Shown here in pieces: positions 1,918 through 50,261 of a stretch of 60,655 bases of DNA. Made by a program: the position numbers and the translations under genes. Every line of letters begins with the position of its first letter. Positions within the stretch are counted from its first letter, which is position 1. This stretch comes from Psammoneis japonica (Eukaryota), in the NCBI GenBank assembly GCA_008632985.1, contig QPGO01000308.1:1-60655 (forward strand), given 5' to 3'. Below the pieces are notes generated by a model. It did no database searches, had not been told where the DNA came from, and saw only the letters and a list, made by a program, of their open reading frames with translations.

Positions 1918-3223
1918 CTAACAGTCTCTTTTCGATCCTGGGCATAGTTGTACAAATAGAAGCAAAGTTGCAGACTGTGGCATTTCTGACCGTATCTTCA
2001 TCCCCCCCCCCATGAAGATTCCAACTAAGGAGTCTGAAATAACGTTGCTGTTGATTGTTTTGTTGCTAACGTCGAAAACAACAATGTCGTTGATACTCCG
2101 AAGTTGATGGACGACGAAGCGCTGGAGATATCGTTTTCCTTGATGACAGTCTTTCGAAGCCTCTTGACCATCGCAGCCAACTTCCGCCTCGGAAATACTG
2201 CAAGAGGACGCCGGAGCCAGGGCGTGCCTCATTATCCACATAATGTTTACCAACCAAAACATTCGAAATGGCATTGCGCTGAACGTCGACTGCGACAGAA
2301 TTGATGAGTTTGGTTCCAATGTCAGACGAGTCGACCTTGTTCTGATGACGTTCATGCGCGGTCCAGGACAGAACAAGGTACCGAAATCGCAGGCTTGACA
2401 TGACACTTGAATCCCGATCGCAGGTAGATTATAAGTGGAAGCTCCATAGGTGATGACGTTGTTTTTGATTACTTCGGTCAAGGCTCTACCTCCGACAAAT
2501 ATGCGTAGGGAGCCCGAGTTGGGAAAGACCGAATCTTTGACCGTGAGCTGGTATTGCTGGACCGTTGAACACGACTGGACAAAAATGTCAAAGCTTGAGC
2601 TTGAATGGGACGATGTCTTCTATACGTTGATGACTTCAACCTGATGAACGACACGACTCGGAGGAGCCAGGAACGAGCAGTCAAGTCCGTCGACACCTTT
2701 CAACGTTAGATTCTCGATCTCCACATTGCTGTTGAGATTACCAAGGATGACCGCACCTGCTGAATTAGCAGTGGGTCGAATGATAGATGAACCAATTTCA
2801 CCTCCCCAAATCTAGACAGCATGGCGGCTTCGTTGTACGTTTAAGCCCAAGTTAAATGGATACACCGGAGCTCGCTCCCGCCAATGCTTTGGCAATGGTC
2901 GTGTAGTAAGGATCTTTGTCCTTGTCATTGCAATTCTCCTTGTCAGTGCCTGCCACGATCGTTCGAGGATCACCAGTGCCTTCAACCAAGCTCTCCTTCG
3001 AACCTGCGTCTGACAGCTTGCGTTGCGCTTGAACGTGTGCCGCCCTTAGTGAAGCCCGGCAGATGGGACCTGGCAAGGAGAGATGAATATTCTCTGGTCT
3101 AAGAAGGGACTCCATAACTGGCTGCACATCCCAAGAAACCCAAGCGGAAGATGCGTAGACATGGCTCGCACCCATCAAAGTACCAGGAACCAACGCCGCC
3201 ACGAAAACCTGTGCAAGGCGCAT
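1918..3223 (-). pseudogene. Disrupted paralog of the secreted beta-helix protein at 5404-6822
   Basis: MRLAQV...RKLSD...PRTIVAGTD aligns to MRLTQL...RKLSD...PRTVIVGTD. Stop at 2852 where the paralog has Q, followed by frameshifts. Downstream frames still match: IWGGEIGSSIIRP..NSNVEIENLTLKGVDGLD and IKNNVITYGA..IGIQVSCQA. Confidence 0.85.
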
Positions 3224-3814
3224 GATTTTGATACACTAGCTATCTCTTCGTTTCGCTGAGAGGGGGGTTGTCGACTGCTGGATTCAACACGCGGTAAGTG
3301 CGGTACCGGCGAAGGAAGGAGAAGTGAGCAGGTGGAGAGAGGACATTCCTCTCTAGCTAGTAGTAGAGTAGAGCGCGATCACGACTTACGATGCCTGTCA
3401 GTTCATGTGCGAATTGAGAATGGCGGGACAGATGCAGGTCACAGATTGATGATTCGGTGTGATTCGCACTATGAAAAGTCATTCAATGCCTGCGGTCACA
3501 GAGACACATCATGCGAGGGCGGCGGGTGGTTGTGAGTCGCGCTATGACGAGTCATTAGTTTTCAGTCAACAATGTCTATTTGGGGCTATTCAATTGAATG
3601 ACCACAAGTCCATCCTCGTCTTATTGAGCTATACTTGGATGAACATTGAATAAGTCATGGGTCATTGACAAAATATTAAGCCCTGGCACAGAGATGTAAG
3701 ACGTTTCGAGTGCTCCACGCTTTTTGCTTTTCTCACATTTCCCGTTTAGCATTTGTTTACAAGCCAATCTTATTCTTCTGCAACAGGTCAACAAGCTGGT
3801 TGACAAACTGGTCC

Positions 3815-6822: not shown

Positions 6823-7908
6823 GGCGGTATTGCGATGAACCTTGTTGTCACGAGGCGTTGGAGATTGGAGATCCCTTGGATGACTTTTTTGTGTGATGTG
6901 AGGTGTGTTGGATTACATTCAGCACACCGAACAAAAGCGCTGATTCGACTCCGAGTACTTTAGTCTGCGTTTTGTTCTGCTGCAGCGTACATAGCATTGG
7001 ATTCATGATGTAGGCTTTTCGCGTTATGCGTCGCCGCAAGTAGAAACATTATGGCTGTAGATAAGTATCCTGGTTACTCCTATTGCAGCGCAATTCATTT
7101 ACAACTACAGTACCATCTTGTCTTACGTGTCAGAGAGCAGCTATACGGCGACATCGGCATCATATCACGATAATGTGACAAAGCGTTGATGCCAAGATGT
7201 AAGATCAAACATGCGTTATGCGAACGAACAAGACCAAAAAGTGAAAAAGCTAAATGACATTTTCCGGTTTCGTCCTGATACGAAAAGGAAAAATACTTAG
7301 GGGTCATTTCTGTCATAGAGTGACTGCTTCTTGGGTCTATCAGTAATGTTTGTATAAAGATCTAAATATATACACATAATAATTCCTAAGTAGTGTACTG
7401 GAGTCACAATAACGCACATAGCAGTTGATTGAATGTCTCATAGCCCTTGAGGACATGGAGTTAGTAAAGCCATCACCTTTTTTTGTCACTCTCTCGCGTA
7501 TCCCAAGATGATCAACCGCAATGAGAACTGGAGGTCCACATGTCGTCAGACCATGTGGTCCACATGGTCTGACAACAACCGTCAGGACACCGACTCAGCC
7601 TCACTGTCAACACCCCAAAGTCTCTGAGAAAAAAAATCATGCCCCACCCAGCCCAGAGCCCAGTCTCTGGTGGAGCATCCAAGAGGCGCTGGCTTGGAAG
7701 TGGCTCTTTCGACAGATTCCAGTCCTCCAGCAGGTGGAACTCTGTGTGGCATTGGGTCTGCAGAATTCTCTGTGTGAGCTCCGCAGCAAATTTGTCAAGC
7801 AATGACAACATGAACAATCGCGAACAGAAAAACAAAAGAGGAAATTTTGCCAAACCCTCCCCCCTCCTTCACACTTCTTGAAGCACATCATTGATGGTTT
7901 GCACAGGT

Positions 7909-8901
7909 GACATGTTCTAGTCCCAGGTGACACACAAAACAACAATCCATTTTGAACATAAATTGTGCATCTCTCGTGCATGAAGCACTTGAATGTAAAA
8001 TGCTCAGAGAGGCGGATGGGCTTTTGCAGAGGCTCAGAGTGTGAACATGTGAGCAGTTTTTTCATTGGCACTCAATTCCTCATGGGACACGCACCACAAA
8101 CTCTCTCTGCAAACTTAATGCTGATTGTGTGACAGTGCATTGGATGCACATTTTCGGGCGCAGGTGGAACACCTGCCAGGAGGTCTTGCAGAAAAATTGT
8201 TTGATTCAACACTCAAGTGTGATGGCAACAATTTTGCCAAAAATCATCCATTGTGTTGCAATTCATTTGTTGCAATGAAAAACATGAACAGCAAAAAAAG
8301 AATGACATTGCAACACTCACGCAAGTCTTGTTGGTGTTGCAAAACATTCAATTTTGGATGAATCTGTGCTTTTGGTGGTGTGAAAGCTCGTTCGCAAGTG
8401 GGCGTGTTCCAGTCCCAGGTGACACACAAAACGACAATCGATTTTGAATGTAAATTGTGCATCCATTAGTGTGTGGAGCATGTTCGTGTAAAATGCTCAA
8501 GCAAATTGGCTTTTATGAGTGTCCAGAGCATGGACAATTGTGAAGAAACAAACAGTTTTTTGTGGGGCATTAAAGTCCTCATGGAACATGTGTCACAAAC
8601 TTCCTCAGCAGACTCAACACTGATTGTGCGTCAGTGCTGTTCATGCTGAGATTTCTTTGCAGGTAGAAAATCTACCAAGAAGTGTCACAGAAAGATGTGT
8701 TTAGTTGACATCCAAATGACGGCAATGATTTTGCCGAAAATCATCCGTTTTGTGTTGCGATTCGTTCATCGCAATCAAAAACATTGATGGCAGGATGACA
8801 ATGATTTTGCAACACTCACATGAGTCGAGTCTTGTCAGTGTTGCAAAACATTAGAATTTGAATAAATCCACATTTTTGGTGGTGAAAAAGTGTTCGTAAG
8901 T
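7909..8901. repeat. ~490-bp tandem duplication (7909-8400 and 8401-8901)
   Basis: Both copies begin g..tgttc.agtcccaggtgacacacaaaac and end gttgcaaaacatt...tttggtggtg..aaag..gttcg.aagt. Confidence 0.85.
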
Positions 8902-9050
8902 CAGAGACCGCGCAAAAATTGTGCAAATGTCGTTTTTGTGCACGATTTGGGTCACGTGCGGCTGGAACACGTCAGTGAGAGACCATGCAAAAATTGCGCA
9001 AATGTCATTTTCGTGCATGATTTGGGTCACGTGCAGCTGGAACACGTCAG
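8901..9050. repeat. 75-bp tandem duplication
   Basis: agagacc..gcaaaaattg.gcaaatgtc.tttt.gtgca.gatttgggtcacgtgc.gctggaacacgtcag twice; internal differences are transitions in YR dinucleotides. Confidence 0.85.
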
Positions 9051-9375
9051 GTGTGTTCCACACCAGACATTGTAGAACACACCCAGCATGTTTTGATTCT
9101 CACAAATGTTGAAAATGGAAAGCCTCTTTGGCGCTTCGCGAAACAGGGAGAGCATGAGACAATTTCATAGAATGTCACACACAGCCATTTGCATGCAACA
9201 CATTTGGTGCAATCCAAAAAACTGTTCGATGTGTCACAGTTCAGCAGTGCGAGGTCCCACCTGGAGCTGAAACGCGGCTTTTCTCGCTCGTTTCCAGCGC
9301 TTTTGTCATGGTTTTGAGCAAGAAGGCTGCAAAACAAAGACCTGAATTTGCTTGCAAAGCTCAAAGGGTTGGCAT

Positions 9376-9765
9376 GACGCGTTCCAGGTCTAGGTGGGAC
9401 CTCGCACTACTGAACTGTGACATCGACAGTTTTTTGAATCACGTCGTATGTCGCACACGTAGATTTCTACGTGATTTTTTCGATATTTTGTGTCATTTTA
9501 CGGTACACTTATTGAGCGATCCGTCCAACAACTTTTGACATTTTTTGTTACAGCGCGATTCTATAATGTCTTAAGAATCGCGTAGGGCAGGCGCATTTGC
9601 AAAAACGTTGAGTGGCAAGAGGCATAATTGTACCACAAACTTGGCAGTTTATTTGATGTTGAAGATAAATATATCCATTAATTTAATTCTCGTACTACGG
9701 AGCTCGCACGTAGAATTCTACGGGCCCAATGTCACACGGAGTCCCACCTAGGACTGGAACCCGTC
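9376..9765. mobile_element. Non-autonomous TIR element (MITE), ~390 bp, possible 4-bp TSD GCAT
   Basis: Left end gacgcgttccaggtctaggtgggac; right end gtcccacctaggactggaacccgtc (inverted); gcat at 9372-9375 and 9766-9769; AT-rich non-coding interior. Confidence 0.75.
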
Positions 9766-14229: not shown

Positions 14230-16030
14230 GGTCGACATTCGGAGATTTCAATCGTGCCGCACCCCAACAGGATAGGGACAACACACAGGTGCCCCGATGT
14301 GTTGGCCACAGGCACAACAAAAAAGGGGGCATTTCAAGTGGTCATGTGTGTCCCACATCAGAGTGGTGTGTGTGGTTGGTTTTGCTCCCACTGTGAGTTG
14401 ATTGTCACAGCCAGCAGCATTTGGTGAGTGACAAAAAGTGCCTCAATGCTGCGCAGCGACTGGCAGAGCTGCTCTGCCCTGGGGCCACACACAGAAGCAA
14501 CGAGTTTTTTGCATGAAAAACAGCTGACACAGCCAGTTTTTGACAAAAGCTGGCTGGCGGCCCTCCTCTGACTCCCTCAGGCCCCCCAGCAGCACAGCAG
14601 ATTTTTGCAGTGGCTGTGTCATGATGCACACCACTTGCTGTGTTTTTTGTGCCCAAAACAGCTCTGCATCGGCAGCAAGAAAAAAAACAAACAGCAAAAG
14701 TTTGCTCATTTTTGGCCAGCTTGAAATGCTGAGCATGTCACACACAGACACAGCCACGATTGTCCTGTTTTTTCAGTGATCTTTTTTGTGCTCATTCTCT
14801 TGCCACCCAACACGAAGCAATTGAGAACGCAAGTGAGGAGAGGCCCAGTGCTGCTGCTTGCAACAACAAAAAAAAGCAGGAGGTGACTGCTCTTGCTGCA
14901 AAAACTGGGTTGGTGGGACCCTTGAAGCTCTTGCCACAATGGACATGTTGCAGCCACACTTGAACCAAAAATCGCACACACAAAAATGACACGTGCGTGC
15001 CATTTTCACATGGTCTCTAAATTGCGGACAAGCTTTCACCACCAAAAGCACAGATTCATCCAAAAACATCAAATGTTCTGCAATGCCAACAAAGCTCACA
15101 TGCGTGCTGCAGCGTCATTCTTGCTTTTGTGCCATTTGTGTTCTTTGTTGTGCCAAACAAATTGCAGCACCACAGATGATTTTTGGCAAAAATGTCAAAG
15201 ATTTGTGTTGATTTGGTGTTTGCATGAGCAGACATTGAAAACAATTGCTCATGATGTTTTCCAGTGGGTGCTCTGCATGCATGGGATTCTCCCCACCAAA
15301 TGTGCTGTTGCACAAAAACCGGCATTGAGTCTGCAAAGGGAATTTATGATGCATCATGTTCCATGAGAACTTGACACCCACAAAAATGCATGCTGCCATG
15401 ATCATCTGGACAAGCATTTTATGAAAATGCCCCATGCATGAGAGACACAAAGCTTGCCTTTAAAATGGATTGACATTTCATGCATCACCTGGGGCTGGAG
15501 CATGTCAATGCTGGGCCCAATTGCAGCAAGGTTGCCAAGGTTTGTTGCACACAACATGGGTTCCCAGAGCCCAGAGAGAAGAAATGTGTCTTCTTCTGGC
15601 CAGATGATCATGCACAGTCTGTGGCTGCAGAGGTTCTTGCCGACCATCAGACACACAGAGTGATTTTGTGCTTGTTTTCTTGTCCAACATGGAGTGAGCA
15701 GGCAACATGATGATGGCACTGCCACTTTCTTCCAGCCACTTTTGAGAAACAAGAGAGCAGAGCCAAAGAGAAGGTTTTTGGCGCTGGTTGTTGTTGTGTG
15801 ACCCCCAGAACAAGCTCGCCCCATGTGCTGGTGATGGGTCCAGACATCAACCAGGTCACCACAACACAATTTCTTTTGCAAGAACTTCACCCGTTGTTGA
15901 TCGAGAATGTTCTCCGCCTGAGCTGGCCTGACAGCGTCCGATGGTGCCTCCCACAAAGAATCCATCAAAAATCGGCGACGCGAAATGTCAATGTTGTTGT
16001 CCTTCCCGTCCTTCCAATCGGATGCAAGTC
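14230..16030. repeat. TpA-depleted tract (unidentified degraded element)
   Basis: TA nearly absent over 1.8 kb, CG also low; dense Cys/His-rich ORFs in all frames; TA-rich edges on both sides. Confidence 0.7.
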
Positions 16031-19241: not shown

Positions 19242-21210
19242 ATGTCAACAACACCACCAACAACAGCTGCAGTAGCAGCTGCAACGACAACACCACCACC
19301 AGCCGCAGTAGCAACAGCGAGTACGGGTGACAATGGGTAAGTCGTATTCTCGACGGGAATTCTCATCACGAACGTCAGTGTGTCTGTGTTGGTACGTACT
19401 TACATGATCGTGTTGTTGTTGTTTAGTCTCCCATCACTGCTCGTCCAAGCGGCCCGTACCGCAGCTCAAGCCGATGGCGTTGCTGCAAAAACGGAAACTC
19501 CCACAACAGCCAATACGACTGCGACAAAGCCTCCACCCTCGGCTGGTACAGCGGCCTTTATCGCTTCCACTTCTCAACCACCGCCGCAGCAACGCAAGGC
19601 CCCACCTCCCAAGAAGAAGGGTCCCCCGTTGCGTCGTGGCAAGTGGACCCCCGAAGAAGAGCCTATGCCAATCGTTTGATTCAAGAATTCAAAGCCGGAC
19701 TACTCCCGCTCACGGACGGAACGACGCTTCGTACGTTTTTATCCAAGCTATTGAATTGCGATCCCATGCGCATCTCGAAAAAGTTTGTCGGAAGCAATTG
19801 TATCGGCAAACAAGTCTTTCGACGACGCACGGGTGACATGAACCGTCTTACTCCGGAACAGATTCAGCAGTCACGTGCCGAATTGAGTGAATTGGAACGC
19901 CGATTCTTGGAACGAGTCGCCCAAACCAATCGCGTTAAGAGCAACAACAGCGGAGTCGGTGGAGACAAAAAGGACTTTTTGCTCCCCCCCACGGCTGCTG
20001 CGGCGGCAGCGATTCAAGCACCACCGAGTCCTCCGTGGTTGCAACCACCCCTGGGCTACAAGCAAGGCACGGGAGCCACCATGGCGGCGGCTGCCGCGGC
20101 GGCAGCCAATAACCGTGCCGCCGCCGCGGGACGAGCCTTGCTGGCGGGACAAGCCACCTCGACACCGTCGTTGTTGGCTGCCGAATTGCAACGCCGGTCG
20201 GCGTCCAATTTGCTTCGCAAGGCGTCTGCGGCACGGCTTGCCGCGGCGGCGAGTAGCAATCCGTCCTCGGTTTCCAATCTCATGCAGGGCCTGTCACGAG
20301 ATCAACTCTCGCTCCTTTCGGGAGCAGCTGCTCGCAATGCGGCCTCCTCCAGTTCACTCACCGACATGATGGAACGCCAATCGTCCTTTGATGCACTCAT
20401 GAGTTTGGATTATCAATCTCTGCAGAGCATTGACAATTTGGCCAATTTGATTCAAACGGGACAAACGGCGGCTGCCGCGTCGAATCAAGACATGAAGAAT
20501 TGGAGTGCGGCTGCCGACGGTAGTAGCGCCAGTCGTTTAGCCAGTGCCGGGCGCATGGAGAGTCTCCTGAAGAGCTTGAGTAGCAATTCGAGTCAAAACT
20601 TGCTCGGAGCCGCCAATGCAGCCTCGGCATTGTCCTTGGCCAGCATGCTGCGGCCACACGATTCCAGCACGGGTCTGACGGCACTCCGCATGCAAGATGG
20701 ACTGGTACAACGCAATTCCTCCGTGGATGACTTTTTGTCTCTTGTAGCGTCGGGTGACATTCCTCATCAAGATCCAACTTTACTGAATATTCCACTACTA
20801 CAGCAACAACAGCAGCAACAAACCAATGCCCAAGCAGCGGCACAGTACTTGGCGCAACAACAGTTATTAGCTCAAGGTGCGTGTAGTGTGTTGTTTTTGT
20901 GGAAGTGTACGTTTTGTTTCACATTATTGACTCACACTGCTATCTCATTCTTTACCTTCCTCACTATACAGCCGCAAACAGTGGCAGCGCGGCCGCCTTG
21001 CAGAGTGCCTTTGGTTCGCTCTCCAATCTCCGTGCCAGTTCCTTGAGTAACTTGAGGAATGCGGCAGCCGTGGCGGCAGCAACCGCCGGAACAAACGCTG
21101 CCGCCGCAGCCACGGTTCAACAACGAGCAGCCGCCTTGGGATTGGATTCGGGTAGCAACAAGCGAAAAGCAACAGATCTACCGGATCAATCACCCGCCAA
21201 GAAGCGATAG
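19242..21210 (+). CDS. Stramenopile Myb-like (GKWT.EEE) putative transcription factor; introns 19337-19426 and 20877-20971; 1-nt frameshift near 19660
   Basis: LRRGKWTPEEE-AYANRLIQEFKAGLLPLTDGTTLRTFLSKLLNCDPMRISKKF; both introns GT-AG and frame-restoring; Ala/Ser/Gln-rich C-terminus. Confidence 0.8.
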
Positions 21211-28869: not shown

Positions 28870-30490
28870 ACGAAAGCACGTGAGTCCCACAGGCTCAAAA
28901 ACATGCACTCATGATCATCTCACTCGATTGTGACGTGGATTTTGACGCCGTGGTGCAACGGCGCACTTCACGACGACGATGGCAATGATCCCACCATTAT
29001 GACAATTGCCCAAATCCACACTTTCAGACTGGTGCAAGCCACAAACTGACTTTTGTCTGCAGAGGCAGTTGTCAGCCACTCTTGTAATTTTGCAAAGCAG
29101 CGTGCAAAATGTTCCATGTGAACAAAAACAGCATGCTTCCATCAATGCTGCATGCTCAAGAACAGGTCAAATGCTTGTGCTCCAATGCTGTGCACAATCC
29201 ATTGTGGGCTGGATGATGATGTGGTGGTGTGCACGCTTTCTGGCACCAGAGGCACAACAGCAGCAAACATGGTGATGGGGCAACAACAGCAGCTGAAGTT
29301 CCACAGTTGTGTTGTGTGTCTTTTGGCGTCATTTTGTGGTGTGTTGTGAGGGTGCCATGCTGGAATTGTGCACTTTCTCTGTGTGTGCAAAAGGTGCAGA
29401 GGGTTGCTGTGGGGCTTTGGTGCTTGCTGGAAAGAAAACAGCTCTCTGCAAAGGTCAGATTCAAAAGCCTTCTTTTGACAAGAACGTCTCTTGCAACTGT
29501 GATGAATGTTGCTGCAAGAAACCGGGGTGCACACCTGCTCATCATTTTCTGCTGAGCAAGGCTCCACAAGCTCATGGCATAAGATGCTGCCATTTTTCAA
29601 GTGGGCAGAACAATGAATGGTTGCACCACAAATTGGCGCAAAATCAATCTAAAATTGAGCAAAGGCAAACATGAATTTTGCACAGGGACACAAGAAAAAA
29701 ATGTGAGCAAGTGTCACAGCCCTGCCCACGACAGCTCTCATGTGCAGTCATGGGAAAGGTGGCACAGCTGGGCTGCACAGCCAGGTTGCACAGCCAGAAG
29801 AAGGTCACAGCTCTGGTGATTGTGTTCTCTCCATTGCATCCAACATCACTTTGTTCCTGTGCAAGCAAAGCAGTGGCATCTTTTTTCACCCCCACAGGCG
29901 GCACAGTCTGGCGTTTGTCTGACATGACTTGCCCTCTCACACTGCTGCAGCTTGTGGCAATGTGTTCCAGCTCTGAGCGGGACTCTGTTTGACACTGGGC
30001 TCATGCAAAATTCTGCATGTGAGCTCTGCAGCAAAATTGCCAGCTGATTTTCTCACACCACATCAAGAATGATCATGAAAAGGAGAAAAAAGCTGTTTTT
30101 GCAAATCAACAAACTCACTCAGCAGCATCAGCAGGCTTTGAAGGCATCATTTTGCCATGCTGCAATCCAGCCAGCCAGAGCTGGCGAATGTTGGGGAGGT
30201 GCTGGAGGATGACCCTTCAAAAAATGACGGTTTTCTGCCCAAGTTGTTTGCAAAAGCACGATCCAGCAAAGAAAGCTCAGAAGTGTTCCCTTGTCATGGT
30301 TGTCATTCTACAAACAGGCTTTGCATTGATGTGTGCGCCGTCGCCCTCTAGCTGGCAGGTGGCAGCTGGAGCAGTCAGTGCAGAGGTGAAACGGCGTGTG
30401 TCGCACGGCCAACGCGACGGGATGACCATGCCAGAACGCAATTGCGGACAGATGGACGACGAGCATGTCAGGCAGGCATTGCAGGTGGGC
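28870..30490. repeat. TpA-depleted tract upstream of the nested elements
   Basis: TA nearly absent; no credible CDS. Confidence 0.65.
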
Positions 30491-30830
30491 CCCACCCCTG
30501 AGCAAGAGGGTTCTCGTGTCAGTTGCTTCGGGTGTGCAGTGCTTGGTTGATTGCATGAAATGGTTCGAATTGTCTGTGCAGGCCGACACAGCGCTTGCAC
30601 GCTCGCAACACAGACATTGAGAGTTCAAAGTCATGTTTCAGTCTCTTTTCCAGGTTATTTCACATGTCCCTGCTCATTTTTCACGAGCTCTAATTTGCAC
30701 ACGAACCACATGCTGGTTCCTGTGCATTTGCGTGCATTTTGTGCCAGCCGCATCGTAGAGGGGTGTTGTTCGCCGGCCCTGACGAACTCTTTCTCAGACA
30801 CAAAATGCTTTTCACGACGTTCCGGCACAT

Positions 30831-30994
30831 TGCAGCAACTCACCCGCATGCTTCTGACACACAGCATCAATTTTGGATGTTAGATTGACACAGCCGTTTG
30901 AGAGAGGCTCACCAGCGTTCGCTGACACTTAGGCTCCCCTCTCTTTGGTCTACTCACTTCTTTGTTTTGACACCAGTTTCAGCTTGAGCTTGCA
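30831..30994 (+). repeat. 5' LTR
   Basis: Gap-free alignment with 36111-36274; 19 differences, all transitions. Confidence 0.95.
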
Positions 30995-31024
30995 CTGCAA
31001 TTGCAGTCAATTGTAAAGAGTTGA

Positions 31025-31234
31025 ATGAGAAACAACGACACAACTAACAGGCTTGCAAAACAAGAGAAAAGAATGTTGAGAGCGAAGGCAGCGAACTGGG
31101 CTTTGGAACAAAAACGGCAAAAGGAGACACGAAAACAACGAAAACAGGATTTGGCGATTCGGGTTGCACAACTCGAGTCGAAGGTGGAGCACTTGAAGCA
31201 GTTTCTTGGAGGACCAACTTGGCCTGATGAGTGA
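31025..31234 (+). CDS. Short basic/coiled-coil ORF in the Gypsy leader, overlapping the gag start
   Basis: 69 aa; KRQKETRKQRKQDLAIRVAQLESKVEHLKQFL heptad pattern. Confidence 0.4.
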   Translation: MRNNDTTNRLAKQEKRMLRAKAANWALEQKRQKETRKQRKQDLAIRVAQLESKVEHLKQFLGGPTWPDE

Positions 31235-32444
31235 TCGCGAGAGTCTTAAAGAACCGTGCATTTTGCATGCTGTGAAATTTGCTCATTTGGATTTGGAACT
31301 TGCGGGGTTGACTCAGTCGCATGATGATGGCAGCACGCGTGTGAAGAAGTGCCCTTGTTTTGACGGAACTAATGGCATTGAAGCGCTGTTGTTCATGGAA
31401 GATTGTTTTTGTAAACTGGCTGCAAAACTTGAATTCACTGCAGGTGAAGAACCATTTGACAATTTCGAGGAAGTGTTGACAGACACTGCTGAAGACAAAT
31501 GGTCCAATCTCACCGTGGCGATTCCGAATGCGCAAAAGACGGTGGCTCGTTTTGACCAAGAATTGGCTCGTTTTTATTTGTCACATTGTGAAACTGAAGT
31601 GCGTGACACGATGATTGAACACTTGCTCTCCCTCAAAAAACCACATGATGTTGAAGCACAGGCACACGCAGATCGAATGGAGACCTTGGTGCGATGCACA
31701 AACAAGTTGCCGGGAAATGATCCAGTTGTCACTCAGAACCAAAAGAAGAAGATGATCTTCGACAGCTTCCCTTTGTCGTGGCGCAAGATGCACACAAGAG
31801 CAGGACGCATGATTGGAAATGATGCGTCAGTGGAAATTGTGGCGTGTGTGAGCACGGAGAAATCATTTGCAGACAGAAACAAGAAGACTTCGAAGAAGCG
31901 CAAAGATGGACAATCGAAAGGTGGCGGCTCTGCCAAGAAAAAAGGCAATCGCATTGACCAAGAATCTCAATGTCCTTTGCATGCTCACAATCACAAGTGG
32001 AAAGATTGCGTCATGAATCCCGACTCTAACAACTGCTGTCCAAGAACTGATCGCGGAGGTCGCGGACATGGTGGCCGTGGCGGTCGAGGTGGCAGTCGAG
32101 GTGGAGGTCGTGGTTGTGGCGGAGCGCAAGGTCGTGGTTGGCAAGGCCGTTGCTGTCAAGGTCGTGGTGGTGGCCGAGGAAACTACGGTGGTCGCGGAAA
32201 CTGTAACTCTGGCGGCAACAGCGGCGAGCATCATGATGATGGTGGCTCTTGCATGCAATGTCAAAACGACACCCGAACCAATGCAGATGGCGGCGGTTAC
32301 GGCAATCCAGCCAGAACGGCTCCTCCCAATGATTGGTCTGCTGAAAGCCATCATCTTGATTCGACAGGAGGGCCTCGAGAGCATCGAGGTGGAACGGGAA
32401 GTTTTTGACCTGGTGGTCGCTTCTCGGGACGCAGTCGACACTGA
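31227..32444 (+). pseudogene. gag: Gypsy gag
   Basis: CPLHAHNHKWKDC knuckle-like motif and RGG-rich nucleocapsid tail; TGA at 32406 and 32442. Confidence 0.8.
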
Positions 32445-35400
32445 CCCAATGAGCTTGAAGAGCTGTCGTCCGAGTGTGTCACTCCTGATTTTTGTGTGTT
32501 TGATGATTGCACTGATTGCATTGATGATTGTCACACACACGCTGCTGATTTATTTGATGACGACGATTTCGGAAATTACACTGTGAATGACGAAGATGAT
32601 GTGGGAATTGAGTGTGCTGTGCCAACCCCAAAAACAAAACCAACAAAGCCATTGAGTGTGGTCCCTGCAACCTCACTCACGGCGCGATTCATTCAAGACA
32701 AGGAAAGCAAGCGCATGATGTGGGTGTTGCTTGATTCCGGTGGAACCCATTCAATGATTCATGCTTGGGTGTTGCCGGTTGGAGCAGTTCCAGCATTGGA
32801 AGAGACAGGAACGATTCGTGCAAAGTTTGGGACAACAGTGGGAGAACTCGAATCAACTCGTTGTGTTTGACTGCAGGACTTGGTGCTCCCTGAATTCAAC
32901 AAGACCAAACATGTTGACTGCATGCATGCGCATGTGTTTGACTCACCCTGCCAATGTGATGTGATCCTTGGACAGGACTTCTTGGCGAGAGCGGGCATCA
33001 CGTTGGATTTCGAACACGGAATTGTCAAGTGGCTCGGTTCAAGCATTGCAATGAAGCCGAAGAATCAACAGACTGGCATCCAGCAATGGCTCAATGATTT
33101 AACTGATGAGCCAGCCAATGATGATGATGTGTGGGACAGTTGCATCCTCGATGCAAAGTGTGAAGAGACGTCCCCGTCTGAAGCAGCTTCAGCTCAGAAG
33201 CATCTCACTGCCGAACAGCAAGAGAAATTGCATCTCGTGTTGGAGAAACACACTGCTCTTTTTGATGGCACCCTTGGCAAGCACACTGGCGAAAAAGTTC
33301 ACCTTGATGTTGACGCTGACGCCGTTCCGCACCATTCTCGAGCGCACGCAGTGCCGCACAATGATCTCGAGACTTTTGAGCGAGAATTAGATCACTTGGT
33401 GGCTCTTGGCGTTCTTGAAGAAGCCGGAACTTCGGAATGGGCTGCAGGTGCCTTTATTTGACCGAAGAAAGATGGTCGAGTGCGGTGGCTCAGCGACTTT
33501 CGGGAACTCAACAAAGCCCTCAAGCGCAAGGTTTGTCCCTCACCGATCATTCAAGATGTGTTGCAAAAGAGAGCCGGGTGCAAATTTCTTACAAAATTGG
33601 ATCTCTCAATGATGTGCTGTGCATTTGAACTGGACGACGATTCCAAAGATCTGACGACAATCGTGACACCCTTTGGAAAGCATCGATGCTGCCGTCTGGC
33701 AATGGGTTTGAAGCCAGCTCCAGATGTTGCGCAATGCTTGATTGAGAAAACTGTGCTTGACTTGGACGTTGACGCGTGCATTGATGATCTCGCTCAATTT
33801 GATGACAATTTTGACATTCACCTTGCTCGTCTCGACAAACTCCTGCAACGTTTGGAAGAAGCTGGATTTAAAGTGAACCCTTTGAAATGTGAATGGTGTG
33901 TGCAGGAAACGGATTTCCTTGGGCATTGGCCAACTCCGACTGGAATTCGTCCGTGGAAGAAGAAAGTGGAAGCCATTCTGCAAATGCAACCTCCGGAAAA
34001 CATCAAGCAGCTTCGTTCGTTCCTTGGTGCTGTGACATGCTGTCGCAACATGTGGCCTCGGTGTTCTCACTTGTTGAAACCCTTGACAGATCTCACAGGC
34101 AAAGGCTCGTGGACGTGGACAGCAGATTGTCAGGCAGCGTTCGAAGAGATGAAAGCAGCACCAGCGGCCGAGACGTCAATGGTGCACCTGAATCACAACA
34201 AACCCTTCCATGTCTGCACCGATGCCAGTGATTGCCAAATGGGTGCAGTGATTGTACAAGATGGAAAACCCATTGCACATTGGTCTTGAAAGCTGAACGC
34301 GGCGCAACAAAACTGCTCGACGATCGAAAAAGAACTCTTGGCCATTGTCGTGTGCTTCCGCGAATTCTGAACAATGCTCCTTGGCGGTGATTTGCATGTG
34401 TTCACCGACCACAAGAACCTTGCCTTTCGCACCTTGAATTCACAACGTGTGCTCCATTGGCGCCTCTTTCTGGAAGACTTTGCCCCTCAATTCCATTGTG
34501 TCGAAGGCCGCTTGAATGTCTTGGCTGATTGTTTTTCTCGTTTACCTCACATGGATCCTCCCTCTGAAGGGAAGAGTTTGGCTCCGGGCAAAGGAACTGT
34601 TGTTGATTTTGCTCCGCTCGATTCGAAGTTGGTGCCGAGTGAGGAACCATCCGAAGTCGAGGATTTCCGCGATGAGGACTTGGAGCTTGGCGCGTGCCGA
34701 TTCAAGTGTTGTCGCAACATTGAAAATGAAGGCCACTCACACTTCTTCTCTTTCTTTGTTGATGAGCCGGAGCTGTTTGATTCTTTTTTGAATTGCCCTG
34801 CGATGCAGGAGATGCAAAATCCAATGACGTTACAACGGATTCAAGAGTGCCAGTTCGAGGACCAACAATTGAACCAGATGCGCATTGCTCACCCTGATCA
34901 TTTTCTCGTGGAACATGTGAACAATCGACCGCTTGTGTGTTGTCGCACGCGATTGAATGATCCTCCAGGACAGTGGAAAATCTGTTTGCCGACTGCACTT
35001 GTGCCCGACATCTTATGGTGGCATCATCTCGTCCTTGGCCATGCCGGAAGCCAGCGCATGCGTGAAACAATCCAGGCTCATTGTTGTCACCCTGGGTTGC
35101 GTCGCATGTGTGATGAATGTTCTTGCGCTGATTGCCAACATGACAAAACTTTGGGTCCTGGCCATGGAGAGCTGCCCGAACAAGAAGCTCCATTGACTCC
35201 CTGGTCGGAAGTGGCGGTTGACCTCATTGGCCCGTGGAAAATCAAAGTGCCGAATGGAGAGATTGAGTTTCGCGCGTTGACCTGCATTGATCCTGTCTCC
35301 AATCTTGTTGAACTGGTGAGAATTGAGAACAAAACTGCTCGACATGTTGCCAACCAATTCGAAAACTGCTGGCTTGCACGCTGTCCCAGACCGAATCGAT

Positions 35401-35987
35401 GCATCCACGACAACGGCGGCGAGTTCACCGGGTGTGAGTTTCAGATGCCATTGCAACGAGCCGGAATTGATGATGTGCCAACTGCTTCATGCAACCCTCA
35501 AGCCAATGCCATTTGTGGATGAATGCACCAGACTGTCGGCAATGCACTGCGCACGCTCATTGCTTCTGATCCACCTCAAAACCTTCAGGATGCAGCCAGC
35601 CTCGTGGACGATGCTTTGGCAACTGCAGCGCATGCAACCCGCTGTGCTGTTTCCCGTTCCTTGCAGATTTCACCAGGTGCTGTGGTGTTCGGACGTGACA
35701 TGATCTTGGACATCCCAGCACTGGCAGATTTGTTGACAATTCAAGGCCATCGCCAGATGCTGATCAACGACAACTTGCGATGAGCCAATGCCAAGAGAAG
35801 ATCCTGCGATTGTCAAGTGGGTGATCAAGCTCCAGTCAAGCACATTGAGCCATCCAGACTCGAGCCTCGTGCTCATGGTCCTCACCCTGTTGTTCAAGTG
35901 CATGCAAATGGCACACTCTCGGTTCGTCGAGCTCCTCATGTGGTTGAGCGCCTCAACACTCGGCGCCTGATTCCTTTTCGCGGTTGA
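32445..35987 (+). pseudogene. pol: Gypsy pol (protease, RT, RNase H, integrase) in one frame with six internal TGA stops
   Basis: LLDSGG; DFRELNK, LDLSM, ACIDD (for YIDD); TDASD, EKELLAIV, TDHKN; HLVLGH..C..C, VAVDLIGP, DNGGEF, NPQANA; stops at 32868, 33459, 34287, 34368, 35520 and 35781. Confidence 0.95.
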
Positions 35988-36110
35988 TCAGGGGGTTTTC
36001 TTCCCAACACCTGGGTTTCCTCCTGTCATTGTCTTTGCTTTTGGTTTTGGTCCTTGGTTTTTGGCCCTTTGCATGATCCTCTGGTTCTTTCGGATCATAG
36101 AAGGGAAGAG

Positions 36111-36274
36111 TGCAGCAACTCACCCGCACGCTTCTGACGTGCAGTGTCAATTTTGGACATTGGATCAACGCAGCCGTTTGAGAGAGGCTCGCCAGCATTC
36201 GCTGGCGCTTGGGCTCCCCTCTCTTCGGTCTACTCACTTCTTTGTTTTGACATCAGTTTCAGCTTGAGCTTGCA
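36111..36274 (+). repeat. 3' LTR
   Basis: Preceded by the PPT and followed by TSD CACAT. Confidence 0.95.
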
Positions 36275-36387
36275 CACATGACTGCCGGCTCGGTGGACAC
36301 TGTTTCGAGTGCGTTTTCACGTAGAGCCCACTGCAGATGTAGGCATTCAGATTTAATTCGGTACAAATCTACGCAGCATTTTGCGTA

Positions 36388-39279: not shown

Positions 39280-39579
39280 GAAATGTGAGGCCTGAAGTGC
39301 CTCGACTGGCGCTTTCAAGCTCTTCTCTTGGAAGATCCTTTAGACGTGTGCTTTAGAGAGAGGATGTGAAACAAACGACAACCAAAGCTGATGACTCTCT
39401 GCCACCAACCACTCTCTCCAACCACTTCGATTTCCTGCCCGTCACTGTTGAATGTGAAGTCCTTGGATCGTTGCGGACGTCTAGTTTCTTTCATCGTTCC
39501 TAAGCTGCTCCCTCCTGGTTTCAAAACAAAAAGACAAAAACTGAACTGCTGCACTTTCCCACTTTCGCTGCCCTCTAGA

Positions 39580-46921: not shown

Positions 46922-48412
46922 CTACACAACAGCCCACACGTAGCAAGCGACACCAAGAATGGCGGCTGCCCCAATGGTGAGTAGTGAGTAATAGTATCCA
47001 TGAGCATGTTGCGGAAGAGCCTTCATTAAACTCTCCGTCTCAACGACAAAGGTTGACACGGTGCTGAGACATCCCGCAAAGCCAAACTTGATGGCACCCA
47101 CCACCAAGAGCAGGGTTAGCTCGTCATTTATTTCGAGAGACAACGCCGCCATGAGAGCTGAAATAGCGCTCGCCAACATGTTGGCTGCAAAGGTTCCAAT
47201 GGGAAGCCACTCCCATTTTGGATTGTGTATGCAACCATTCAACTTGGAAAGTTGCCATCGTAGGATTGTTCCAAACGGTGAAAACAGAGTCGCTATAAAA
47301 TAGGTGCGGTAGGTAATTGAAGACGGATCCGATTTGTCCGACAGGGCAACGGCTCCCCAAATAAGCAAAGCCGTGGCAGAAAGAAAGCCAACCAAATTGA
47401 CAAACAATTCCATTCTGTACAATCGTAGATGTGACAATTTATGAAACTTGACGTGATGATGCCATCCTGCATTCCTTGCCGACTCCATCAAGTTCGCTCG
47501 TGGCCTTTCATGTCGAATATGAATCATGCTTTGAATCTCTCGAAGCTTTTGTGTGAAGGCGTGCTTGTGAAAGTAATGATGACGGTGGTCCTCCGTATCC
47601 GTTTGTTTCTCCAGATAAATCCCTTGATCCTCGTGCTTGCTCTCCTCCTCATAACTAATGTCATTATCATTGCCCACCGAGTCATAGTCTGTGGTCATAT
47701 CTGGCAACAAGTCCTTTTGCTGTACCAACATGCTCTTGCGGCTCTCATGAGCATCTGCTTGTCGACGCACCTCGGGATTGTTTCTCCGATGCAACGCCAC
47801 GGCTACATCCCTCCCGATCAGAAAGGATTGCATAGCGGCCATCCATCCAACTGCATATCCAAACAGTGCACTGACCCATTGTGTACTTGTTCCATTTCCA
47901 CCGCAAATCATTATTACCATTTGCGTATTCCAAGACGCAAACGTGGTGAGCGACCCAAACAGTCCTGTGCGCAAGCCCAAATGCGTTGTAGACCACTTTT
48001 GAAAGGCATGCGATTGCGGCAAAAACGCCACGGGCATTTCGTTCTGAGATACAGCATCCCCCGACACAAACATTCCAATTAAAAAGCATCCCAACATGTT
48101 GGCGGGCATGTCGATAAACATGGCACCACCCGACATGGACGTACTACCGGGATCTGTCGTGCAAGGCATCCATTCGAATTCGTTCAAACTGATCGAGCCG
48201 GGATTGTGACAGGCTTGACCAAAGATTTGTCCGACTACCCAACGAATCGATTCTCCAATGTACGAATAAAACGAGAGGGCAACGAGTTGAGAAATAAAAA
48301 CATGATTGTCGCTGCGAATCATCTCGTCATGAGCCGTCATGTCGAACGCAAAGCGAGACGCACTGCCAGACACCTCGGGATATCTCGAAAGGAAGAGTAA
48401 GGCGAGAATCAA
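46922..48412 (-). CDS. FEX: Fluoride exporter FEX (two CrcB/Fluc domains)
   Basis: ANMLGCFLIG..GLRTGLFGSLTTFASW and GTFAANM..FGFAGCLSTVSTF; the true start may be the ATG at 48453 through a 1-nt shift. Confidence 0.9.
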   Translation of the reverse strand: MILALLFLSRYPEVSGSASRFAFDMTAHDEMIRSDNHVFISQLVALSFYSYIGESIRWVVGQIFGQACHNPGSISLNEFEWMPCTTDPGSTSMSGGAMFIDMPANMLGCFLIGMFVSGDAVSQNEMPVAFLPQSHAFQKWSTTHLGLRTGLFGSLTTFASWNTQMVIMICGGNGTSTQWVSALFGYAVGWMAAMQSFLIGRDVAVALHRRNNPEVRRQADAHESRKSMLVQQKDLLPDMTTDYDSVGNDNDISYEEESKHEDQGIYLEKQTDTEDHRHHYFHKHAFTQKLREIQSMIHIRHERPRANLMESARNAGWHHHVKFHKLSHLRLYRMELFVNLVGFLSATALLIWGAVALSDKSDPSSITYRTYFIATLFSPFGTILRWQLSKLNGCIHNPKWEWLPIGTFAANMLASAISALMAALSLEINDELTLLLVVGAIKFGFAGCLSTVSTFVVETESLMKALPQHAHGYYYSLLTIGAAAILGVACYVWAVV

Positions 48413-48540
48413 CGGGAAAAGAACTTGGGGAAAGATGCTTGAAGCGCCGCCATTGTGCGTGATTGATTGATGCCAGAAATGTGGGTACAGGTCAAGGGCC
48501 TATGAGAAATAACAGAGAGTGATTGAACTCTGCTGTGTGT

Positions 48541-48880
48541 TCTACTCTCTCTACTAGAGAGAGTAGAGCTAGAGTACAGTAGAGGTAGCTACCTACTCTC
48601 TCTCTAGCTAGAGCTAGTAGAGAGAGCACCGTAGCTACTAGAGTAGAGCTAGTAGTAGAGGTAGCTACCTGCCGGTGGCCACCGGCAGCCAGAGCCAGCC
48701 AGCTGCTCTCTGCTCTAGCTTTTTGCTGGAGTTGCGGGGTGGAAGCATGGCAGCACTTTAAACAGTGGAGAGCCAGCAGCCAGAGAGCAGAGCTGCCGCC
48801 ATGTGATGCTGCCGCACCGCAGAGAGAGCTGCCATGACTGCGACTCTCTCTCTAGCCAGCTGGCTGCTCTGGCTGGCAGG
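48541..48880. repeat. TAG/CTA/GA low-complexity satellite: intact to ~48668, TpA-converted beyond
   Basis: agagtagagctagtagtagaggtagctacc changes to ctgccggtggccaccggcagccagagccagccagctgctctc. Confidence 0.8.
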
Positions 48881-49770
48881 ATGACAGTCAGATGGGAACA
48901 CTGGAAAATCTTTCACACACTGCGAGCAGATCTCATTCTGGCACTCGGTCCAGAGTGTGCACACAAAGAAGGGTCACCCATCCTCAGCCAAACCATTTCG
49001 AAAGACGAACTTTTCACAATCAACACGGGATGCCGGCAAGTGCTTGTGCATCCCATCCGCAGCAATCTTGCTCAATGCATCAAAATCTGTGCGCTCCTCG
49101 GGCGTCGATGACTTCTTGCAGCCCAGCTTGAGCAGCAAGTCCGACGGATCGAACCCTGTCAAATTGTTCCCAGTTCGAGGCTCACAAGAAAAGCACAACA
49201 AATGCAAATGAGATGGGTTGGAGTGGCGCGTTGTCCTTGTAGTCAGCGTGCATGAGGAGCCAACAACGCAAGCCACCCGATGTGGCGTCCTTGCAAATGC
49301 CGCAGTGCCGCCCAACTCCACGATGGGTGGAGCCTCGAGTTGGAGGAGGAGGAGTTGGGACATCCTCTGCAGTCTCATTGTTGCCGCCATGATGCCTTGG
49401 ATCTGCTTCTGCGGGTGAGGGTCAGCCTCATGCCGGCAGTCAGAGTCGCTGTCATCAGAGCAGTCGTCGATGCCACCATCGGTCTGCACGCCAACAGAGA
49501 CAACCACGTGCTGCAACAACAAGCCCCAATTTTTGAGGTTCCCAGTGGGTGCAGCATTGTCGTCCTCAATGTCTCCAGCTGCAGCAGCGTCGGTGCCATT
49601 TTGGCGTGAAGTTTGAAAGATGGGGCATTCGAAAAAGGCTGTGGTGAAGGACACAATGACGGACCCAATGCTGACGAGCGCTTTGTTGTGACGTGCGCCC
49701 GCCGAGTGCAGCACATGGCGTTGGAACTTGCAAATCCAAGTGCAAGTTTCCTTGAGAACAAAGAAATGAG
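48669..49770. other. TpA-depleted tract
   Basis: Very few TA between the satellite and the MITE. Confidence 0.7.
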
Positions 49771-49775
49771 CACTA

Positions 49776-50137
49776 TGGGGACATCCCGAATAAATTTAGC
49801 CAGTGGCTAAAAACCTCCTGTAGAATTCTACGGATTTCTCCTGGTATGCGATATATTTAATGATAACGCCTTTTAACGCCACCCCATTGTTTTCTTTTAT
49901 ATACATATTATTATTTGTAGTTTTTTGTTTTTGTATTCATTTTGAAACGCTTAAAAGCTAAATGTTTTATATGAACGAACGTTATAGTTAGCACCAAACC
50001 GTTACAGATATGACATTTATAGGTTCAGTACAATGGATAGTAAATACTTTTTGTGTAGAAAATATACCAGCGTACAAACCTGGTATGTGTCTACACAAAA
50101 TTTTAGCCACTGGCTAAAATCATTCGGTATGTCCCCA
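49776..50137. mobile_element. AT-rich MITE, ~360 bp, with ~37-bp TIRs, flanked by TA (Tc1/mariner-type target)
   Basis: ta|tggggacatcccgaataaatttagccagtggctaaaa ... ttttagccactggctaaaatcattcggtatgtcccca|ta. Confidence 0.85.
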
Positions 50138-50261
50138 TAATAGTGAACAAGAAGGAGGGGACCACCATGCAAACCAAATCAATGTCGAGGTTTGAGGATT
50201 CGCTCGGCCATGTCAAAGCCTGTACACAACACGACGGAGAGCCAATATTTTGTGACGAAAG

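Follow-up and report, generated by a model that had tools for sequence, protein, structure and literature searches.

The locus considered here lies within a window of 60,655 bp, which is the whole stretch of DNA that was analysed. It comprises a fluoride exporter gene (FEX) on the minus strand, a low-complexity repeat tract upstream of this gene that passes abruptly from a TA-rich into a CA/TG-rich form (the switch), a TA-poor domain of 1.1 kb that includes the CA/TG-rich half, and a MITE-like element (Table 1). The FEX open frame spans 46922-48499 (-) and its 5' end faces the tract. FEX has 181 homologues, of which the named ones are mostly from diatoms (Attheya, Pseudo-nitzschia, Ditylum), and the best matches are 57-63 % identical. 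Since conservation with five relatives starts right after Met54, the FEX start codon is best placed at the ATG at 48340. The original prediction had put the switch about 220-260 bp upstream of FEX, a distance that has to be corrected to 329 bp when counted from this best-supported start codon; an out-of-frame ATG at 48453 lies 216 bp from the switch. Rfam analysis of the window gave two matches far below the gathering scores (23.3 vs 100 bits and 19.7 vs 75 bits), and no tRNA was found in the window.

Table 1 Features of the locus and related features elsewhere in the window
Feature	Position	Strand	Remarks
Fluoride exporter (FEX, double CrcB)	46925-48340	-	Pfam CRCB, E = 9.9e-24, two stretches
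Unconverted TAG/CTA-type compound repeat	48541-48669		10-bp palindrome GGTAGCTACC at 48584-48593 and 48660-48669
Converted part of the repeat family, TG or CA in place of TA	48670-48880		3 TA vs 41 CA+TG; read-back 7-mers; lags 80-81
Perfect palindrome of 20 bp, beginning at the switch	48669-48688		Opposite-strand self-match 20/20
Fragment of dispersed repeat inside the right half	48716-48764		Contig depth 985 vs baseline 59
Non-repetitive rest of the TA-poor domain	48881-49772		892 bp, 1 TA in 176 TA/CA/TG sites
Lone TA of the domain remainder, heterozygous T/C (GTAG/GCAG)	49240		Two-allele bubble
TA-rich, unmutated MITE-like element; right edge of the domain	49774-50139		39-bp terminal inverted repeats
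Motif family copy 2, TA form, in ordinary DNA	3349-3374		19/30 k-mer hits
Motif family copy 3, CAG/CTG form, in gypsy-bearing TA-poor domain	30345-30375		20/30 k-mer hits
LTR-like pair, flanking the gypsy-type element	30831-30995 / 36111-36275		165 bp, 88 % identical
Dead gypsy-type element (RT, RNase H, integrase)	33462-35522	+	In domain 28877-36318

The sequence originally quoted for 48541-48880 is correct, and its division into two halves was confirmed. The TA-type repeat is intact to 48668, with 23 TA, 2 CA and 0 TG in the 128 bp of 48541-48668, and this left tract contains 7 CTAG. Beyond 48668 nearly every TA is replaced: the 212 bp of 48669-48880 hold 3 TA, 19 CA and 22 TG (TA vs CA+TG 23:2 on the left and 3:41 on the right; Fisher exact p = 5.7e-13). 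It had also been claimed that the right half can be converted back into the left. Indeed, when CA and TG are read as TA, 105 of the 206 right-tract 7-mers are common to the left tract, compared to 18 of 206 in the raw sequence. Dinucleotide-preserving shuffles of the right tract (n = 500), read back in the same way, gave a mean of 32.6 and a maximum of 54, and none of the 500 reached 105. The 212 bp after the right tract share 7 of 206 7-mers with the left half, which is not above the level of their own shuffles, and the tract ends at about 48880. A read-back scan of the whole window in stretches of 100 bp ranked 48671-48791 first, with 51/94 against a background mean of 4.0 (sd 4.6). Exact read-back matches between the halves measure 17, 14, 13, 12, 11 and 11 nt. 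Examples are GGTAGCTACC, found twice in the left half, with its counterpart GGTGGCCACC at 48674, and the pairs of TA form and converted form ACTCTCTCTCTAGCTAG at 48595 vs ACTCTCTCTCTAGCCAG at 48843 and TAGCTAGAGCTAG at 48605 vs CAGCCAGAGCCAG at 48686. Both halves belong to one repeat family, as had been proposed, and differ almost solely in TA versus CA/TG.

Inspection of reads had been suggested as a check. Three sequencing runs from one sample and study, probably the source of the assembly, were consulted as contigs. A short-read contig of 2648 nt (run X1) spans 47800-49208 with one substitution and one indel; as it runs across the switch, the switch is not an assembly artefact, and this run is probably from the assembly's own sample, so that the support is not independent. 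The run contigs have one extra base each at 48891 and 49418 and a C/T difference at CpG 48818, which may be small assembly errors or alleles.

The tract had been regarded as a single microsatellite, which did not hold. TRF reported three weak arrays only (periods 11, 16 and 12), each with 2.3-2.4 copies and confined to the left half. The tract is a compound of TAG/CTA and AG/CT words with frequent short palindromes, and has a higher-order period of ~76-81 bp, the double period being 161 bp. Exact repeats of 13 and 17 nt within the left tract are spaced 76-80 bp apart. At lag 80 and in TA form, 48640-48670 matches 48560-48594 with 86 % identity over 35 columns. At lag 81, 48686-48698 (CAGCCAGAGCCAG) matches 48605-48617 (TAGCTAGAGCTAG), with 3/3 TA converted. 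That the switch lies inside one array is best supported by this in-register match of the switch-crossing unit on both sides. Alignment of four units by MAFFT gave a mean column identity of just 52 %, low-complexity palindromic words being ambiguous to align. The core of the palindrome that begins at the switch is GGTGGCCACC, the TA to TG/CA counterpart of GGTAGCTACC.

The dispersed-repeat fragment in the right half has loose contig ends on both sides, at 48716-48723 and 48762-48764 (8 and 6 contigs), and self-comparison revealed no second copy of it in the window. A 47-bp piece of this fragment matches many contigs of the same sample, which diverge on either side. On the right of this piece, a T-rich consensus common to the other copies is missing from the present locus. 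A 19-letter degenerate motif of the 47-bp fragment retrieved 13 metagenome loci, which were discarded as chance matches of 19-24 nt in unrelated contigs.

Two short copies of the tract motif were found elsewhere in the window (Table 1). The TA-form copy lies ~125 bp upstream of a minus-strand ATG at 3221-3223 (read by eye), like the tract before FEX, and an association of the motif with promoters is possible (n = 2). The original prediction took a CAG-type half occurring unlinked to TA arrays as a sign of an independent repeat family. A short unlinked copy in CAG form does exist, at 30345-30375, but it has no refuting force: it lies inside another TA-poor domain, as conversion predicts, and the test is therefore invalid as worded. 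A survey at the other 17 borders called in the window found no other tract scoring at least 15/30 nearby; a weak match (14/30) at 39393, 28 bp inside the border at 39365, was rejected as a different sequence.

The switch occurs within a few bases, as predicted, between 48667 and 48670. The last TA of the run is at 48666-48667 and the first converted site is the TG at 48670-48671. A logistic fit of conversion state over the 69 tract sites placed the midpoint at 48668 with a best width of ~0; at a width of ~6 bp lnL is lower by 1.92, so that the 10-90 % rise takes no more than about 26 bp. Both strands are hit in the right tract, yielding the 19 CA and 22 TG, and a strand-run test of this half was not significant (z = -1.08). 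There is no CpG between 48630 and 48673. The switch also coincides with the left edge of the TA-poor domain, in agreement with the original prediction. Fifteen of the 17 other borders in the window could be fitted, the remaining two being too near the window ends. For eleven of these a step fits best, and for the other 4 a width of at least 150 bp. At ordinary TA density these borders constrain the width loosely, each step-like one alone ruling out only widths above roughly 30-100 bp, and the value of the border at 48668 therefore is its resolution.

Over the whole domain, 48669-49772, 4 TA remain in 220 TA/CA/TG sites, and the corresponding HMM segment (48763-49771) has a CG observed/expected ratio (o/e) of 0.66 and a GC content of 0.55. 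For the stretch 48670-49772, Pfam returned nothing, two large protein searches brought up no homologue, and tblastx against the window found no similarity beyond the locus itself. The open reading frame 48974-49795(-) had no Pfam hit at E<=1 and 0 hits both in 920 candidates and in 1.84 billion representatives. No recognisable transposon or viral content was found in the domain by the Pfam and protein searches. On its right side the domain ends at the MITE-like element, and this edge is probably trivial. The terminal inverted repeats of the element (49774-49812 / 50101-50139, 92 %) start with TATGGGG, and its 366 bp contain 45 TA. A contig depth of 1000-1800 points to many copies; loose contig ends occur at 49774-49776 and 50139-50140, and a target-site duplication may account for the outer TA. 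Among the A>G or T>C differences in other copies of the element, 9 of 13 are on TA (read by eye).

The lack of TA is not limited to this domain. In the whole window the o/e is 0.44 for TA, 1.34 for CA, 1.38 for TG and 0.81 for CG, the TA lack being strong and patchy. TA-free gaps of at least 150 bp number 47, compared to ~20 expected, and the longest in the window measures 1859 bp. A two-state HMM on all TA/CA/TG sites of the window called nine TA-poor segments, that of the present locus among them, with a TA o/e of 0.03-0.18 and a CA/TG o/e of 1.2-1.9. In eight of the nine segments the CG o/e is 0.18-0.72. The DNA between the segments has a TA o/e of ~0.4-0.9 and a CG o/e of ~0.9-1.45. One called segment, 19859-20512, has a GC content of 0.59 and a CG o/e of 1.09 and lies within a long open frame (19427-21046); rather than a mutated domain, it probably represents coding sequence that is poor in TA.

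Selfish or repeated DNA was found in the domain 28877-36318, which bears the gypsy-type element, and in the pair 7504-9385 and 14279-16025. The latter two share an inverted repeat family with 67-78 % identity, and 7504-9385 also contains an internal tandem duplication of ~490 bp (71 %) and a 75-bp tandem repeat at 8895-9050. The gypsy-type reverse transcriptase, RNase H and integrase were recognised by Pfam. Their reverse transcriptase and integrase frames have 0 Tyr in 658 residues and ~6 % Cys, and CIDD replaces the expected catalytic YxDD. The two members of the LTR-like pair differ by 19 mismatches, all transitions and 17 of them in YR dinucleotides. This pair was not used for inferring the direction of change, since CA/TG swaps between copies can come from an ancestral CG as well as from TA.

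The tract was excluded when the dependence of TA loss on neighbouring bases was measured, so that the resulting context rule comes from the other TA-poor domains. In R-TA-Y contexts the TA fraction of sites drops from 0.277 to 0.002 in TA-poor domains, and TA survives best in Y-TA-R contexts, from 0.144 to 0.036. RTAR sites yield CA over TG by 1.8:1 and YTAY sites yield TG over CA by 2.1:1, biases which indicate that the preferred target is the A of 5'-TAY, on either strand. The tract follows this rule. The three TA surviving in its right half (48716, 48759 and 48853) are all Y-TA-R, a class that makes up 13 of the 44 sites (hypergeometric 0.022, calculated by hand), and its Y..Y sites gave 10 TG vs 3 CA, as the rule predicts. 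In the left half, 16 of the 23 TA stand in contexts that are ~90-99 % erased within domains, and the left half thus was not exposed to the process. Domain survival fractions applied to the left tract predict ~3 survivors, compared to the 23 seen (a rough hand calculation).

That TA is the ancestral state was claimed from the tract, and this claim turned out to be correct in its outcome but not in its grounds: the tract alone cannot show a direction, TA and CA/TG being symmetrical, and the direction follows from context. The right half runs into TA-depleted non-repetitive DNA and the left half abuts ordinary DNA, with 5 TA and 29 CA+TG in the adjoining 200 bp. TA is further indicated as ancestral by the loss of Tyr and the CIDD for YxDD in the gypsy frames, by the motif copies, of which the one in ordinary DNA (3349) has the TA form and the one in a TA-poor domain (30345) the CAG form, by the GTAG/GCAG polymorphism at 49240, and by an experiment in Bigelowiella natans (see below) in which the change from TpA to TpG/CpA was seen directly.

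Variation within the sample was found in the same domain. The run contigs form a two-allele bubble at 49179-49300, with depths of 34.3 and 30.5. Its three substitutions are all in YR dinucleotides: 49240 TA/CA, 49247 CG/TG and 49270 CA/CG. Two of these three heterozygous differences are CpG transitions, and the one at 49240 (GTAG/GCAG) is the change that the context rule predicts. In the 2.6 kb of contigs compared, all 3 heterozygous substitutions outside the multi-copy MITE fall in the TA-poor domain, an indirect hint of a raised rate of new mutations.

It is considered fairly probable that, at this single locus, the array was partly rewritten by local TpA hypermutation over 48670-49772, with the left limit of the process within the array. 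An ancestral TAG/CTA-type array with higher-order units of ~80 bp would have been present upstream of FEX. Local hypermutation, changing TpA into TpG or CpA (A:T to G:C at TpA) and most simply understood as adenine deamination, would have worked on this 1.1-kb stretch up to a limit inside the array. To the right of 48669 nearly all TA would have been converted, on both strands and by many separate hits, and to the left none. As the array offers a TA every ~5.5 bp, the limit was recorded at near base-pair resolution, as a step and not as a gradient. The interleaving of the strands and the TA/CA site that is still heterozygous suggest many separate hits rather than one single-strand event, and with many separate hits the edge must have kept its place over time. 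A TadA/ADAT-like deaminase may provide the chemistry, with hits accumulating gradually under whatever fixes the edge. Candidates for setting the edge are an inherited mark (chromatin or 5mC), a bound barrier over 48660-48688, a homology limit or a later structural junction. Promoter or nucleosome protection had been raised in the original prediction as a possible cause of the sharp border, and is kept here as a putative one. A few-bp edge maintained over many independent two-strand hits could point to a heritable mark or a sequence-defined limit and not to diffuse chromatin, which is put forward tentatively as a possibility rather than an expectation. In the case of a mark, CpG 48673 is predicted to be the first methylated and CpG 48630 to be unmethylated; in the case of a barrier, the 20-bp palindrome at the switch would be the candidate.

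The step might be a structural junction instead, the right module having arrived preconverted within a mobile or duplicated segment, or the left array (or its last unit) having expanded or been gene-converted after the mutation episode. Such an origin is judged unlikely, and several features of the tract speak for it. The single-strand fold consists of separate self-complementary modules, the left one closing at 48670 and the right one extending from ~48681 to 48880, with the switch as their limit. The 17-nt exact repeat AGTAGAGGTAGCTACCT terminates exactly at 48670, the internal exact repeats of the left half suggest recent slippage, and a dispersed-repeat fragment is present at 48716-48764. 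In view of the fold and the 17-nt repeat, the step could owe its origin or its sharpness to a duplication, gene-conversion or insertion junction. However, the switch-crossing unit is in register with its sister unit on both sides, at lags 80 and 81, and even without 48640-48670 TA-form sequence would directly adjoin converted sequence. Self-comparison gave no repeat pair spanning 48670-49772, and visual inspection of its ends revealed neither terminal repeats nor a target-site duplication. The only part of the domain that is multi-copy at >=85 % likeness among the run contigs is 48716-48764. In the run contigs and the window, the right half thus lacks the terminal repeats, the target-site duplication and the several full-length copies by which a mobile element is recognised. 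The two halves might also be unrelated neighbouring low-complexity tracts, CAG/CTG richness being native to the TA-poor domain. CAG/CTG-rich 200-bp windows do occur in other TA-poor domains, e.g. at 14401 (23) and 25601 (20), as do short CCAGCCAG words, but windows such as these two represent a different tract type. After read-back only 48671-48791 comes near the left tract, with a score matched by 0/500 shuffles, and the matches of up to 17 nt, the common period of ~80 bp and the surviving TA that obey the context rule make unrelated origins improbable.

A reversed direction, with an ancestral CAG/CTG array whose left half went from CA/TG to TA by a RIP-like C-to-T process, would profit from the symmetry of the tract when taken alone and from the left half being abnormally TA-rich and almost without CA/TG. 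It would need a conversion island of 128 bp while the adjoining 200 bp retain their 29 CA+TG, and the overall trend in the window is a loss of TA and a gain of CA/TG, the gypsy frames lost tyrosine codons and TA-form motif copies are found in ordinary DNA; this direction is considered highly implausible. Alternatively, both halves may be within reach of the mutator, with converted left alleles being removed by purifying selection on a promoter element of FEX. In favour of this, the tract precedes the FEX start codon by 329 bp, and the similar TA-form motif at 3349-3374 stands ~125 bp above a minus-strand ATG. Moreover, borders facing putative gene 5' ends lie 79-990 bp from the first ATG (worked out by hand, with 48669 as the tract border, on gene models of which those of FEX and a 2OG oxygenase only were verified). 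Selection would, however, need to act on each of 23 TA sites separately and cease within 4 bp, and a functional element should give a graded edge and not a step. As a full explanation this is very improbable, though selection on a putative FEX promoter element could help to keep the left half intact.

The reading of the locus as an array partly rewritten by local TpA hypermutation places several constraints on the mechanism. The logistic width of at most ~6 bp makes the limit a step, the interleaved two-strand hits make a single one-strand event unlikely, and 5'-TAY is the preferred target with Y-TA-R being refractory. These constraints give precise predictions for methylome, nucleosome and mutation-accumulation work at one defined locus. 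If the edge is indeed fixed, the process would be a genome-defence-like A:T to G:C change, and the locus, taken with the 5'-TAY preference, would serve as a natural reporter, at base-pair resolution, of the targeting and arrest of a eukaryotic DNA adenine mutator.

Adenine deaminases of the TadA/ADAT type offer a parallel for the target context. TadA and ADAT deaminate tRNA at U33-A34, with U/T directly 5' of the target A. Bacterial TadA reads U-A-C, and early TadA-derived adenine base editors preferred YAC, which resembles the 5'-TAY preference measured here. TadA, ADAT and ADAR act on RNA or, when engineered, on single-stranded DNA, whereas at the present locus both strands of chromosomal DNA are hit.

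The pattern also resembles RIP of ascomycetes, in which dinucleotide-specific transitions confined to stretches of repeated DNA inactivate transposons. RIP involves RID/DIM-2, a premeiotic timing and the pairing of duplicates. In the present window some TA-poor domains are repeated, but 48670-49772 is not, apart from 48716-48764. RIP changes C into T, mainly CpA into TpA, and thereby creates TA, whereas here TA is destroyed; instead of the TpA excess typical of RIP, the affected domains are TA-depleted. RIP can overrun into adjacent single-copy DNA (PMC3105345); the edge here differs in being a step of a few bp. The decay of 5-methylcytosine at CpG in methylated transposons likewise gives TG/CA products, and such decay co-occurs here (CG o/e 0.66 in the domain). 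However, CpG decay cannot remove TA, and the conversion of the tract is TA-specific.

Full-text literature searches found no description of TpA hypermutation in diatoms and one publication on targeted TpA to TpG/CpA hypermutation, a 2026 preprint on a chlorarachniophyte with a resolution of 1 kb. PMC9258296 was rejected as a precedent, as its 'hypermutation' concerns immunoglobulins only. The preprint describes TpA-restricted hypermutation of integrated NCLDV and virophage DNA in B. natans (Mettrop et al., bioRxiv 10.64898/2026.01.13.699255). During mutation accumulation 230 of 231 new mutations in hypermutable regions were A>G or T>C, and every one of these 230 was at TpA (10.64898/2026.01.13.699255). 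The change described there is A:T to G:C at TpA only, resulting in TpG or CpA depending on the strand, and local domains are TpA-depleted and enriched in CpA+TpG, as they are here. Judged from the end state of the sequence, the restriction to TA to CA/TG changes and the confinement to discrete domains in the window match the B. natans signature. An ADAT2-type adenine deaminase is proposed in the preprint, and an adenine deaminase is suggested here too. B. natans is a chlorarachniophyte, whereas the host here is a diatom-like stramenopile, of a different supergroup. The targets in B. natans are integrated viruses; here they would be a gypsy element, other repeats and a 1.1-kb stretch without homologue. 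In B. natans the de novo rate came from mutation-accumulation lines and domains were analysed in 1-kb windows, whereas here the process is deduced from its end state and the edge is placed to a few bp. The text of the preprint contains none of the words 'boundary', 'border' and 'diatom', and the parts of it that were consulted make no mention of the 3'-neighbour context reported here. The same signature thus appears in a diatom-like genome, where a TA-dense array straddling the edge makes that edge readable almost to the base, and the locus contributes base-pair resolution, a two-strand pattern and a context rule.
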